Below, in pieces: positions 23,701 through 29,700 of a stretch of DNA of 34,290 nucleotides (the stretch's first letter is position 1; each line of letters begins with the position of its first letter). This stretch comes from a virus. Made by a program: the position numbers. The stretch lies in the UHGV virus genome UHGV-1987335; one strand, 5' to 3'.

Positions 23701-26700
23701 TCCAGACTTTCAACTAACAATGTAGTTCCTGGCAATATATAACCATGCTCTATAGCATCTAAAAATTCCGAAAAAGCTCCTGATTGTGCATGCTTTCCTT
23801 TGAATGCACTTAATCCTAAATCTTCATATGTTATGGTATCAAGATAATAATCACTATTTACCTTTAACCATTCAGCAATAAGTCTTCTCTGTCGGTTTAA
23901 TGAGTCGCCAGACATCTGACCTGGTGATGAAAATCGCATATATGCTATGGCTTTTTTCATGGTGACACCTGCTAACGTATGCTTTTATAAACCTTAGTGG
24001 TGGGATATAATTTTTGTTTAATTTTTATTTAAAAAGACAATTAAGGTCACATTATCTTGAATATACAACAATAATCGTATTGCAATTTTCTTACGCCATA
24101 ATCTTGAAAGCACAAAAGAATACATAAAAAATAAAGACATTAACAAAAAGCATAAAACGAGGCTCATATAAATATAAGAGCCTCCATATTTTAGTCGTTT
24201 AGAAACAAATTATTTTAATGTGGTGTGCTTCGTGACAATAAATTAATAACCAACACACCGGCACAAATCAACATCATGCCTATAATGGCTGGCAGGTCCA
24301 GCCGTTGGCAGAAAAAATCCCCATGACAGTAAGCTAATCAGGACAATACCGACTCCTGACCAGATACCATAAGCAATCCCTGTAGGAATATAAGCCAGCG
24401 TCTGAGCTAATAACCAGAATGATGCACAATAACAAATAATTGTACCAACAGATGGCCATAACCGTGTAAAACCTTCTGAAAACTTCATTAAGGTTGTACC
24501 AATGACCTCTGCAAGTATTGCACCACCAAGATAAATATAAGGGTTCATAGCATATTCTTTCCTGTTCAAACTGGAGAGAATTGTACTACAGTTTGAACTC
24601 AACTCACCTGTTTCATCATTGTGTTCCCATTGATGTTCTTTTATATACCCTCAGTACCCGTTTCATCGCGGCACTCTGGCGACACTCCTTAAAAATCAGA
24701 TTCGTGCTCACCTTTCCTTCCCGTTCTTCTCTGGTAGCGAACCGGTAATACACCGTTCGCCAGACCTTACCATCAACGACCAGGATTCTGGTTACGGTTG
24801 CACCTGTTACCGCGGCAACGTCCTGTGCACAGAAGCTCTTATGCGTCCCCAGGTAATGAATAATTGCCTCTTTGCCCGTCATACACTTGCTCCTTTCAGT
24901 CCGAACTTAGCTTTGATTTCTGCGATCTTCGCCAGAGCCTGTGCACGATTTAGAGGTCTACCGCCCATGACAGGAAGTTGTTTTACTGGTTCAGGTATCG
25001 CCTCACCACGGTTAATTCGCGCGGTCATACAGGACAGTTCATCGGCAGCCTTGCGCCGTAATTCCGCGTCAGTCAGCGCATTGGCCCGCATGTTCTGGTA
25101 CAAGTTGGTAACCAACCAGTAATGCGCGTTCGATTTCCACGGATAAGACTCTGCATCCGGATACAGGCCACGCTTCCGGCAATACTCGTAAACCATATCA
25201 ACCAGCTCGCTGACGTTTGGCAGCCCGGCGTTAACAGATGCTTCTTCCCGGCACCAGGCGACAAACTGCCCGGGTGATGGCAGGAATGGTCGATTCTGCC
25301 GACGGGCTACGCGCATTCCAGCGTTAACCTGTTCCATTGTGGTGATCCCGTTTTCCCGGAAAGCCAGAACCCACTGGCGGCGGATTTCGTTCAGTTCATT
25401 CTGGTCACGGTTAGCCAGGCTCGCCGGGAAAGTTGCCAGTAACTGGCTGAACACACCGTTGATGATCTGCGCTACCTGCTGTACCTGTGGCTTTTCGTCG
25501 TACTGTTCCGGCATGTTGTTGGCGATCCGGCGCATCTGCTCACAGTCAAAGTTAACCATCTGTGCGGCGATGTTTTTCATAGCTCCACCCCGTAAATCCA
25601 GTCAGTGTTCGTCAGGTCGAGTTTTGGTTTGCCGGCTGTCACGCCAGCCTGTTGCTTGTTTCGGTTGATTTCGAGCTGGGTCCACTTGTCGCGGAGTTTG
25701 GCCGGACTTAGCACGTTACCGGACCAGAAGTTGTCCTGGCATGCCCAGCGGAACAGCACGCACATGTCGCGGTGGTTACGTCCGTCACGTTCACGCATCA
25801 GGCGGATATCGTTAGCCCACCCTGCAAAATTCGGTTTTCTGGCTGATGGCGCGATGGTCTTCACCATGTCAAACATCCACTCTGCGGCGGTCAGGTCTTC
25901 TGCTGTCCCCCACTTGCTGCCGCTCTGAATTGCAGCATCCGGTTTCACCACAGGAAGATCGTTTTCTGGTTGGTCAGAGGATTCGCCAGAATTCTCGGAC
26001 GAAAAAGGTTTTATATTGTCTTTTGTTAGTTTGTCTTTTGTGTTTACCTGATTCGGGTAAACGCCTTTACCTGATTTGGGTAAACTTTTTTTACCTGATT
26101 CAGGTAAATTTACCTCTTTCAGGTAAACTTTATTTTTCTTACCTGATTCGGGTAATGTTGACCATTCACTGACCACATTATTAATGCCGGTATTCCGCCC
26201 GCTCTGAATAAAAATCCCACGCTTTACCAGAACACTTTTTGCAGCAGAACACTTGTGCGGCAATATCCCGGTCAACTCGGAAAGTTGCTCGTTGCTCACC
26301 CAATCCAGTTTTTTATTAAAGCCATATGTTTTGCGCATGACAGCCAGGAAGACCAGAAGCTGGTGCTGTGTTAATCCGGCCAGCATCACAGCTTCCAGCA
26401 ACTCATTTGCAATGCGCGTATAACCATCATCGAGATCTGCCACACGCGGCTCCTTTTGTGCCGCATCCGGCACTGGAAAATTGAATATCTCAGCAGTGTT
26501 TGCCATAATTCCTCCCGCAATGAGTGTGTTACGATTTGCACCTGAAAGTCGGTTCTGTTCCCGCAGACCGACTTTCGCCATTTTTGAACCTGTCATATTG
26601 CCCCCAGCATGGTGGTGACCATCGCCATCAATGGACCAGCCAGATCCGGGTCCACTCGAAACATCGACACAATGCCTTCACTCATCTCCTTCAGTTTCTG

Positions 26701-29700
26701 GTGGCGTGGTGCGTTGAGAATGACAGCCTGTTTTGCCTCACTGAGTTCCTTTTCCATTTCAGCCAACCTAGCCATAAAGCTATCCTGCTCAACCAGGTAA
26801 CCGCGATATTCCAGCGGTAGTACCGCCAGAATTGCCGGGGTCAGTTCACGCACGTTATTTCGGTATTTTTCAGAATCGAATTTGTTATCGAGGAAGCGGA
26901 ACAGCTTCTGGCGTGCACGGCTGACATCATCAGGGAAATCGATGGTGCCGCCGCCCTGCTCCCGATACTCATTCACAATGAGTGCGGCAACAACATCCTG
27001 ATTATCTGCAGCCGACCAGGCGCGGACGGCATCACGGATTTTTTCGTGGCCTGGAGCTTGTTTTGTTTGAGAACGATTTATCACCGCAGTCGGGCTAAAT
27101 CCGCTAGTCTGTTGGTATGTAAGTGGTTGCATAGTCATTGCCTTATCAGTTAACGCCGCAGTTTAGGCGGCAGAATTACTCGCGTTAAACAATGGTGCGA
27201 GGTCGGGACGAATATCTGCTGGTTTAATCTTTCCACCAGTGGCTGAGACAATTTTCATTACATAGCGGGCATCAATTCCGCCACCGTGTAGCCAACGCCA
27301 AACAGTGGGTTGGGCTACACCGCATAGATCTGCCAGTCGTTTTTGACTACCTGTAATACTGATTGCGAGTTGAATGGTTTGATTTGTCATTATCAATTCC
27401 TATTGGTATTGCAACGAATAAATAATAGCAATTCGTATTAATCATAACAATAGCAAAACGTGTTTTGACCATCAATACGCAAGCGTATAAATTAAAACTT
27501 ATGAAAAAAGAAACTCTTGCTGATCGCTTAAACCTAGCGATGGAACAATCTGGAATGTCTCAAGGCGCTCTTGCAAAGGCGTCTGGCGTAGCTCAACCCA
27601 CAATCTGGAGACTGACAAGCGGCAACGCGCGCGGCTCAACAAAAATTGTTGAAATAGCTAATGCATTGGGTGTTCGAACAGAGTGGCTCTCATCAGGCAT
27701 AGGCCCGATGAGAAATGACGGTCAACAATTAGGGAAGCCTACTGCCAACCATCCCAAATACTTCAAGATTGACGTTCTTGATATAGAAGTGAGTGCCGGG
27801 CCGGGAGTCATCAACCGTGAGTTTGTAGAAGTTCTACGCTCGGTTGAGTACTCGTTTGACGATGCTCGTCACATGTTCGATGGTAGGAAGGCAGAAAATA
27901 TCCGCATCATTAACGTGCGTGGTGACAGCATGTCAGGAACGATCGAACCAGGTGATCTGCTGTTCGTTGATATCACGGTTAAATCTTTCGACGGTGATGG
28001 CATCTATGCGTTTCTGTACGACGACACCGCCCATGTAAAGCGCCTGCAAATGATGAAGGATAAGCTGCTGGTTATCTCTGATAACAAGAGCTACTCACCG
28101 TGGGACCCGATCGAGAAAGACGAGATGAACCGGGTGTTCATCTTCGGTAAGGTTATTGGGAGCATGCCCCAGACGTACAGGAAACATGGATAATCAGTAC
28201 TGTGCTGATGAGTCGTTTAGGGGATAGTAAATTTAATTAGAATTAGACGAGAGCGATTTATGGATTGTGACGCTTTACAGGATATAAAAATCTCTCTTAG
28301 GTATGACGGAAAAGATGCTTTAAATCATGAAATAGATTTGAACTGCCTAGGAGAATCCCTAAAGGGTTTTTCTAAAGTTCTCTCAACAGCAGCTTCTTTC
28401 TCTGTTACACAAAAATATAGTAAATACATTAATTATCAAGAAGTTAAGGTTTACGCACGCGAAGCAAAAGCTAACTGCTTTACTCTTGAAGCAGTTCTTA
28501 ACTTCGCCACTCTGAACCAGTTGTTCTCGGGGATCGCCGCAACTATACTTGGCGCAATACTACAATATATTTTTGCGAGAAATTCTAACAAGAAAGATGA
28601 AATGAAAGCTTTGCAGCAGTCACTTGAAAAGGCCATAGAGGCACTAGGAAACAAGGATGCTGGAACCATTGATAAGTTGATCTCTTTGATTGACCGAATG
28701 GCTGTAGAGCTTCGCCCCTCTGTAAGGCAGGCAGTATCACCTATTGGTAATACTTGCGATCAGATAAGTGTTGCAACAAATGTTGACGGCTGCCTTCTAA
28801 AAGTTAACGAGAGAGATAAAGCTGAAATTGATAGGCTTGATGATGATGAAGTTCTCGGTCTTCGTGAGTATCGTGCTTTTCTTACAGAATTTGATGCACA
28901 AAATATGACAGCTAAAATAATTTTAGATGGTGATGACTCAAAAAAGAGAATCACTGCTGAAATTAGCGATCCAGCTGCAGGAAAGAAGAATAACCCGTAT
29001 ATTAGAGCTCTTAGTGCATATATATCAACCAAAGGTGATCCATCTGCAGTATTCACTATAACCGCAAAGGCTACTGTTAAAAAAGGCCAGATAAACAGGT
29101 TATTTATTGTAGATGCGAAATGATTTCCCCGGCCGTCGTGCCGGGTTTTCTTTTGCCTCCCCTCATCACACACCGTTCAAAAAACCACCACAACCTCCCT
29201 TCAGTTATCGCTATGCGATGCAAGTCACAAAATTAATTCTTTTTGCTATCAAACAGTTAATATCAAAACACATCAATCAATAGCTATAAGTATTGATACC
29301 ACCAATAGCAATGGATATTATTACCATGTCGCAACAACACAACGATACGGCAACCACCTGATTCACCGTTGCGATGACCGCTTAGATCCGCAGCTTGAAT
29401 TTCGGCAGGCTCCGGGGAGTGCGAGGGGTGAAACGGACGCGTGAACGTCGGTGTGACCAGCTGAAATCAACTCAACTCAACACCTCATACCTCAGTCGCT
29501 TCAACGAGGCGGCTTAGTTATGACAACCGGCGGCCATCCACCGCCTGAATACGCGCAGAAGTCTCTATATGTTCAGCAGCCCAGCTTACGGGTAGGAGTT
29601 TTTATGGTTCATCAACATTACGGAACGCAGACCGTTAATCGAGGTGCGGTCATGCCAGGAATGCTGGTCAAACACAAAGATGGTACCTGGACTGCATCAG

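Follow-up and report, generated by a model that had tools for sequence, protein, structure and literature searches.

YdaS and YdaT have been studied in the prophages Rac and CP-933P, where YdaT forms a tetramer that binds boxes of the type TTGATT-N6-AATCAA at the ydaS/ydaT junction (PMC9986795, PMC11879457, PMC8630535) and activates a leftward promoter directed toward the repressor gene (PMC8630535, PMC9986795, PMC11879457). The Rac box has been footprinted experimentally (PMC11879457), and YdaT's homology to CII of phage phi80 was already noted in the comparison made for CP-933P (PMC8630535). Here, we describe a related locus in the virus genome UHGV-1987335, a stretch of 34,290 nucleotides that we refer to as the window. 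The locus carries a gene for a cI-type repressor and, divergent from it, genes for a YdaS-family Cro analogue and a YdaT-family cII analogue.

The lambdoid early region lies in reversed orientation within the window, as judged from a listing of open reading frames (ORFs) and from reading of the sequence. Its gene order is cI-OR-cro-cII-O-P, where OR denotes the rightward operators, and the prophage resides at argU. The best genomic match, at 100% identity, is a DLP12-like prophage located beside this tRNA-Arg gene that also carries intD, the ybcK-ybcO genes, rusA and quuD. In our view, the region probably represents the module for immunity and decision of an intact DLP12-like lambdoid prophage at argU, organized on the plan of phage phi80. 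With less assurance, we also favour the view that all YdaT-family cII analogues, of both the long and the short subtype, are class-II-type activators of a repressor-establishment promoter (PRE) adjacent to their box, with a -10 element 20 nucleotides (nt) from the box and with a single target in this phage.

A YdaT-family cII analogue and its candidate promoter

The gene in the cII position (26593..27132/27138, minus strand) encodes a protein of 179 or 181 amino acids that belongs to the long, or phi80, subtype of the YdaT family. Residues 69-156 of the 181-amino-acid ORF match the Pfam family PF06254 (YdaT_toxin) with an E-value of 1.5e-29 and 102.7 bits (cut-off 21), and the protein also matches the PHROGs family phrog_163, labelled as a CII-like transcriptional activator, with an E-value of 4e-67. 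The original prediction had placed the two rightward early genes in the YdaS and YdaT families, and profile searches confirm both assignments (the YdaS match to PF15943 scores 54.6 bits). Nothing in NCBIfam matched the cII analogue, and there was no match to the lambda CII family PF05269 at E-values up to 0.01. Translation is more likely to start at the ATG at 27132 (179 amino acids) than at 27138 (181 amino acids), because the former methionine is invariant across homologues and is used by RefSeq, where the product is named ‘toxin YdaT domain-containing protein’.

An AlphaFold2 model built from a 28-sequence alignment (mean predicted local distance difference test score 86.7) contains a disordered N-terminal extension of ~30 amino acids, a POU-like helix-turn-helix (HTH) domain with helices between residues 31 and 115, a long helix at residues 121-140, two additional C-terminal helices and a hydrophobic tail at the end. 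The model thus combines the five-helix POU-like HTH domain with the long oligomerization helix, and its only significant neighbours in the Protein Data Bank, as determined with Foldseek, are the YdaT structures 3c4r and 8bt1 (probability 1.0, TM score 0.71, 28% identity). Matches to these structures by sequence only are weak (E-value about 4e-4). The recognition-helix arginine of YdaT (Arg60 in CP-933P, Arg57 in Rac) is also present, as R81 (motif QKLFRFLD), and does not vary among the 28 aligned sequences. We predict that the cII analogue forms a tetramer and is a POU-like HTH protein. Two features are peculiar to long-type proteins, namely the N-terminal extension (27043-27132) and the hydrophobic C-terminal tail (PLMAMVTTMLGAI, 26593-26650), which is conserved. 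As a matter of speculation, this tail could be a protease degron like the tail of lambda CII.

A candidate binding box for the cII analogue, TTGAGAACGATTTATCAC, is located at 27067..27084 (plus strand), where it corresponds to cII codons 17-22, retains the TGA...ATCA core of the published YdaT box and sits where the footprinted box lies in Rac. A search with a long-type alignment provided a survey of 66 loci, with one genome per species, from which neighbouring genes were extracted; short-type loci were gathered by single look-ups. In long-type genes, an element resembling the box always lies in frame at the same place, 48-54 nt from the gene start, and the cores TGAT and TCA are preserved in 61 of 65 homologous loci. 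Core bases are constant where the encoded amino acids vary. The codon before the box is always ATG, TTG, CTG or GTG, such that the first base and the amino acid vary and the last two bases are fixed, and in the right half-site a third-base T is constant where the encoded residue can be N, D, Y, A or S.

A second element accompanies the box at a fixed distance. The sequence TAGTCT at 27105..27110 (plus strand) resembles the -10 element of a PRE-type promoter, and the pattern TAnnnT is found at an offset of 20 nt from the box, on the strand directed toward cro, in all 61 long-type loci that were compared. Among representatives sharing less than 85% identity, the T, A and T of this pattern are invariant (31 of 31) and a G at position -14 is nearly so (27 of 31). 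Codons that overlap the -10 element encode differing amino acids, and yet one codon is constant at its third base and the following codon at its first base. The same arrangement of box, 20 nt and TAnnnT recurs in seven of seven short-type loci, including Rac; the six others share less than 50% identity, and their boxes always begin 7 nt before the ydaT ATG. In Rac (E. coli K-12, about 3630-3695 of the extracted locus L003), TATGAT stands on the leftward strand exactly 20 nt past the footprinted box. Furthermore, a position weight matrix trained without the window sequence yields one match in the 34 kb, at 32.4 bits compared with 13.3 bits for the best shuffled sequence.

Transcription from this element is predicted to start near 27117 (plus strand), which would place the centre of the box at -41.5. 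Comparative evidence of this kind suggests that a PRE-like promoter is embedded in the 5ʹ end of the cII gene and reads toward cI. The conserved positions of the disordered N-terminal extension coincide only with the embedded box and -10 element. If, as we lean toward believing, the family acts at box-adjacent promoters, then the extension looks to be conserved mainly because the promoter is written in its codons.

Searches for further sites gave a mixed outcome. Canonical YdaT boxes with up to three mismatches are not enriched in the window (21 matches versus 19.5 expected), and those with at most one mismatch number two where 0.15 are expected. One of the latter, TTGATTTGTCATTATCAA at 27379-27396, spans the ribosome-binding site and start codon of cro; it is probably fortuitous and was not counted as a site because it is unconserved in relatives that have the same cro type. 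The other, TTGATTTCCCAAAATCAA at 20561-20578, is a perfect canonical box just past a terminator-like hairpin and between ybcM and the nin/quuD genes. No TAnnnT occurs at the conserved spacing from this box.

Immunity unit and predicted circuit

The repressor gene (27501..28193, plus strand) encodes a protein of 230 amino acids that combines an N-terminal HTH domain (Pfam HTH_3) with a C-terminal S24 autopeptidase domain (Peptidase_S24, PF00717; E-value 1.3e-18), and PHROGs labels it as a CI-like repressor. It had been described as a self-cleaving protein of the lambda-style S24 type, and the expected residues are all in place: Ala99-Gly100 in the linker, Ser143 in the motif GDSM and Lys180 in VKRL, with 37 residues separating the catalytic serine and lysine. 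These features identify the protein as an S24 repressor that would undergo RecA-stimulated cleavage at Ala99-Gly100. It is 100% identical to the cI proteins of phages 4A7, D2 and Perceval.

The control region between the divergent cI and cro genes is 110 base pairs (bp) long. It carries three 14-bp operators of the form ATAsS-N4-sSTAT (27425..27488), which were recognized by pattern search and as repeat D1, and which are spaced exactly 25 bp apart from centre to centre: OR1 at 27425-27438, OR2 at 27450-27463 and OR3, a perfect palindrome (ATACGCAAGCGTAT), at 27475-27488. Scans for promoter consensus sequences revealed a candidate rightward promoter (PR) at 27422..27450 (minus strand), consisting of TTGTTA, 17 nt and a TG-extended TATTAT, that points into cro and whose -10 and -35 elements are overlapped by OR1 and OR2, respectively. 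A candidate repressor-maintenance promoter (PRM) at 27465..27493 (plus strand) consists of TTGACC, 17 nt and TAAATT; OR2 adjoins its -35 element, and OR3 lies within its spacer and -10 element. The predicted start of this promoter is at or beside the cI ATG (27501), and translation of cI from PRM transcripts is predicted to be leaderless, as has been shown for the cI analogue of CP-933P (PMC8630535).

Pattern and promoter scans also located a further pair of operators resembling those of OR (29280-29293 and 29305-29318), again 25 bp apart, which overlap a strong plus-strand promoter (TTGATA-17-TATTAT, 29293-29321) that matches 10 of 12 consensus positions. We predict that this element (29280..29321) comprises the leftward operators (OL) and leftward promoter (PL). 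The complete arrangement of operators and promoters is that of lambda, and presumably functions in the same way.

The first gene of the PR operon, directly downstream of OR and the PR-like promoter, is a cro analogue of 75 amino acids (27163..27390, minus strand). It matches PF15943 (YdaS_toxin) with an E-value of 9.6e-15 (cut-off 30 bits), is labelled by PHROGs as a transcriptional repressor and is 32% identical to Rac YdaS. A hairpin of the form GCCGC-N7-GCGGC, read directly from the sequence, spans its stop codon (27155..27171). The same hairpin, GCCGC(C)-loop-(G)GCGGC, is found in phi80 (2962-2978 of the extracted locus L070) and in about 20 related loci, even though the cro genes are unrelated. 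It marks the left edge of a phi80-type cII module. We considered whether this hairpin might be the annotated nut (N utilization) core of phi80 (CACGTAAACGTG), and rejected this assignment since it is not that sequence.

These components could be assembled into the following circuit. In the prophage, the LexA-like cI protein would bind the three OR operators and at least two OL operators to shut off PR and PL, and it probably also controls its own leaderless PRM. Upon DNA damage, cI would be inactivated by RecA-stimulated self-cleavage. PR would transcribe the YdaS-family Cro, which is expected to compete for the same operators, followed by the YdaT-family cII analogue, O and P. The cII analogue is proposed to bind the inverted-repeat box within the 5ʹ end of its own gene and, as a class-II-type activator, to turn on the adjacent PRE-like promoter, whose transcript, antisense to cro, would extend through that gene into cI and thereby establish repression. 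An antisense RNA of the oop/M3 type is predicted just downstream of cII.

Position of the mosaic joint and rival explanations

The original prediction regarded this locus as a mosaic immunity region in which a repressor gene of one origin had been joined to cro and cII genes of another. Mosaicism is indeed real, as is evident from comparison with BTP1 and the other P22-like Salmonella phages ST104, ST160 and SE1, with the joint placed between cro and cII and not between cI and cro. The repressors of these phages are 85% identical to the window cI. In BTP1, cro is likewise of the YdaS type (69% identical) and the operators and promoters of OR are near-identical to those of the window, although the flanks diverge. 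DNA similarity stops at the cro stop codon, where BTP1 lacks the hairpin, and the gene at the position equivalent to the window cII encodes a 93-amino-acid protein of the lambda type (Phage_CII, PF05269; E-value 4e-30, 104 bits). Because BTP1 shares the cI-operator-cro unit and yet carries a lambda-type CII, this unit assorts independently of the cII unit. It follows from the same comparison that YdaS and YdaT are not an obligate pair, and that YdaS-type cro genes travel with the S24 repressor rather than with YdaT. The survey agrees with this conclusion: among the cro-position genes upstream of long-type cII genes (63), 46 are of the YdaS type, 15 of the P22_Cro type and 3 of the lambda-Cro type.

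The locus thus joins a phi80-type cII module to a BTP1-type immunity unit, which is ordinary lambdoid mosaicism between two known parts. Of 5,426 complete E. coli genomes, 717 contain the 1.9-kb region (at least 95% identity across at least 80% of the length). Ten isolated phages contain it as well, and several of their records annotate cI, cII and Cro. Because the arrangement is known from phi80 and present in hundreds of E. coli genomes, it must be considered ordinary, widespread and already recognized in phage records.

Several other explanations for the locus can be weighed against the one given above. One possibility is that a Rac-type ydaST pair was recently combined with a lambda-style cI, such that the lysis-lysogeny decision is rewired in a new way. 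This idea derives from the original prediction, and it gains some appeal from the fact that the repressors of both studied YdaS/YdaT systems are without S24 (RacR has no Pfam match, and PaaR2 has no peptidase motif; PMC8630535) and from the genuine mosaicism of the locus. However, the combination already exists in phi80, a divergent repressor with an S24 domain accompanies this type of cII in at least 33 of 57 surveyed loci from other species, and the exact region is carried by hundreds of E. coli genomes. In addition, the cII analogue is far closer to that of phi80 (66.7% identity) than to Rac YdaT (35%), and the joint falls on the wrong side of cro. A noteworthy recombinant is accordingly very unlikely. 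It is even harder to credit that YdaT and YdaS are the toxin and antitoxin of a type II system, despite the Pfam family names, the ‘toxin YdaT’ label in RefSeq and the observation that ectopic expression of either Rac protein is toxic (PMC5700377, PMC5700373). The YdaT DNA-binding fold of the cII analogue, the location of its gene between cro and O, and its 67% identity to phi80 cII all argue otherwise, as does the lack of obligate pairing: in BTP1, a cro of this type is accompanied by a lambda-type CII, and genes of the P22_Cro and lambda-Cro types are found beside cII genes of the type described here. This explanation has been tested and rejected (PMC5917428, PMC8630535, PMC9986795), and the proposal that the two genes are instead cro and cII analogues holds up both in published work (PMC5917428, PMC8630535, PMC9986795, PMC11879457) and in the gene order at this locus. 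There is similarly little reason to view the region as a decayed remnant of a cryptic prophage with a non-functional switch. Although emrE is annotated as frameshifted and DLP12, the relative in K-12 at the same site, is defective, the ORFs are intact and retain their catalytic residues, the operators and promoters are intact, and the module is found at 97-100% identity in the isolated complete phages 4A7, D2, 1W, 3W and Perceval and in the PhiR series. We judge decay to be very improbable.

Another explanation accepts the cII-like protein and its box, and assigns them a different role. The protein might mainly serve as a repressor or roadblock: bound within the 5ʹ part of its own coding sequence, and possibly where cro starts as well, it would curb read-through from PR and would not activate a leftward promoter. 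The box does reside within the transcribed cII gene, a one-mismatch canonical box covers the cro start codon, Rac YdaT lowers racR expression through intergenic sites (PMC11879457), and the report on the CP-933P structure terms the protein a repressor (PMC9986795). Nevertheless, a pure roadblock would not explain the TAnnnT that 68 of 68 loci carry, without exception, on the leftward strand at a distance of exactly 20 nt to the box, the box at the cro start is unconserved in relatives that share its cro type, and activation of a leftward promoter has been demonstrated experimentally for both Rac and CP-933P. We therefore consider a predominantly repressive role unlikely. The proposed activation of an adjacent PRE must itself be balanced against a number of observations that weigh on the other side. 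The distal half of the window box is degenerate (TTGAGA), with four mismatches to the canonical 12 bases. TAGTCT is a weak -10 element that lacks a -35 element, which is expected for an activator-dependent promoter and is not proof of one, and a PRE transcript would have no obvious Shine-Dalgarno sequence upstream of the cI ATG. Scans of the window with a composite pattern and with the weight matrix gave no second cII-dependent promoter like PI or PaQ of lambda, as reflected in the single matrix match, and no cIII-like gene was found in the window; the circuit is for these reasons not a full copy of that of lambda. This analysis establishes to which families the proteins belong, that the catalytic residues are in place, how the operators are arrayed and that the spacing between box and -10 element is conserved, and from this we infer all binding, activation and cleavage events for this allele. 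Finally, the Rac study assigns YdaT-dependent activity to a promoter predicted by BProm ~190 bp from the box (PMC11879457). The reporter used in that work also held the adjacent -10 element, and its data consequently fit both an adjacent and a distant promoter.

On balance, activation of a box-adjacent promoter is the reading that we prefer, by a modest degree. The TATGAT of Rac suggests that a box-adjacent promoter of the class-II type operates there instead of, or in addition to, the published PracR4 located ~190 bp away. If YdaT analogues are indeed activators of an adjacent PRE, then the ‘activation from a distance’ described for PracR4 would really be activation of the adjacent promoter, and the published Rac data would have a simpler interpretation. 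The module of box, 20 nt and TAnnnT would also provide a precise location for the establishment promoter of the entire YdaT family. The conserved geometry of this box-adjacent promoter is a modest new detail. The ‘toxin YdaT’ label that genome pipelines still give to this cII analogue is misleading.

Neighbouring features and comparison with known systems

An antisense RNA unit resembling oop of lambda and M3 of phi80 was identified at 26481..26590 (plus strand) by a promoter scan, by a folding z-score of -3.7 and by similarity to the M3 block of phi80. Its promoter consists of TTGAAT (26481), 17 nt and TG-CATAAT (26504-26509), and its RNA begins near 26516 and continues up to a hairpin (26544-26576) and a T-run, ending just short of the cII stop codon. 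The block that includes this promoter and the start of O shows conservation with phi80, where the M3 RNA is annotated. The replication initiator gene O (25577..26596, minus strand; PF04492, E-value 1.1e-33) is probably annotated 30 codons too long in RefSeq, across the oop/M3-like RNA. The PHROGs profile begins at residue 31, and O itself probably starts with the ATG at 26506, which follows GGAGG and aligns with the start of gene 15 of phi80. Five direct repeats of ~15 bp (ACCTGATTCGGGTAA-like), at about 26046-26158 within O, are the expected iterons of the replication origin. A helicase loader of the lambda P type (24879..25580, minus strand; PF06992, E-value 8e-62) is also encoded.

On the other side of the control region, a gene for a 287-amino-acid protein with Pfam domains DUF7946/DUF7947 (28260..29123, plus strand) has the same direction as cI, with a terminator after it (29128-29145). 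Its product is 62% identical to protein 40A of phi80, and the gene is found in the slot occupied by rexAB in lambda and by st313-td in BTP1, the latter of which we take to be bstA. Because of this location, it is a candidate prophage exclusion or defence gene. PADLOC returned a weak PDC-S42 match for this protein (E-value 3e-4), and only weak sub-threshold matches for the four proteins that were submitted. No gene for an N-like antiterminator or cIII was found at 29322-29604, between the predicted PL and kil (29604-29810). The only ORF in this interval (29395-29517; GVKRTRERRCDQ) encodes 40 amino acids, is rich in arginine and has no PHROG match. Rfam searches at gathering thresholds gave zero matches across the window. 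As a separate observation, the emrE gene for an efflux protein of the small multidrug resistance family (24243-24602, minus strand) appears to be frameshifted at its 3ʹ end, and in the identical genome RefSeq treats this gene as a pseudogene.

Among described systems, phi80 shares the gene order, an S24-type cI (Peptidase_S24, E-value 8e-20), a YdaS-like cro (gene 30, whose 29.8 bits fall slightly below the cut-off of 30) and a YdaT-type cII (98.7 bits). The Ala-Gly cleavage site of the window cI aligns with Cys-Gly in phi80, and the two phages also have in common a 40A homologue at the same position, the oop/M3 promoter block, the hairpin at the cro stop and the box-20 nt-TAnnnT arrangement inside cII. 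They do not share an immunity specificity, and only the cII, M3 and 40A parts are common to both. The cI proteins are only 23% identical, the cro proteins are 34% identical over 44 amino acids, and the operators are different, such that the two phages are heteroimmune. Unlike phi80, the window carries O and P of the lambda type. An N gene and nut sites are present in phi80, whereas the interval of the window from PL to kil yielded none. The cII proteins of phages mEp237, HK225 and HK639 are 50-66% identical to that of the window. BTP1 and its relatives supply the nearest immunity unit, and BTP1 differs in its cII and in having st313-td rather than a DUF7946 gene after cI.

The Rac set RacR-YdaS-YdaT and the CP-933P set PaaR2-YdaS-YdaT employ the same cro and cII families, the same fold and the same type of box, and the spacing from box to -10 element in Rac is identical to that of the window. 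However, Rac YdaT and the window cII are only 35% identical over 96 residues, and the Rac and CP-933P proteins belong to a short subtype of ~140 amino acids without the N-terminal extension and C-terminal helices. The repressors of these two systems lack an S24 domain and are not cleavable in the SOS response, and both prophages are defective.

Phage lambda exhibits the same logic and gene order, with three OR sites around divergent PR and PRM promoters, a leaderless cI, an oop-type RNA and a PRE-type promoter within the 5ʹ end of cII that reads antisense to cro. No counterparts of lambda cIII or of PI-like and PaQ-like elements were found in the window, and the Cro and cII proteins come from unrelated sequence families. 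The DNA sites differ as well: lambda cII recognizes the direct repeat TTGC-N6-TTGC flanking the -35 element, whereas the candidate site in the window is an inverted repeat centred at -41.5. If cII analogues of the YdaT family do act at adjacent PRE promoters, then cII would have a single target in this phage, and control of integrase and late genes would be uncoupled from cII, unlike in lambda.

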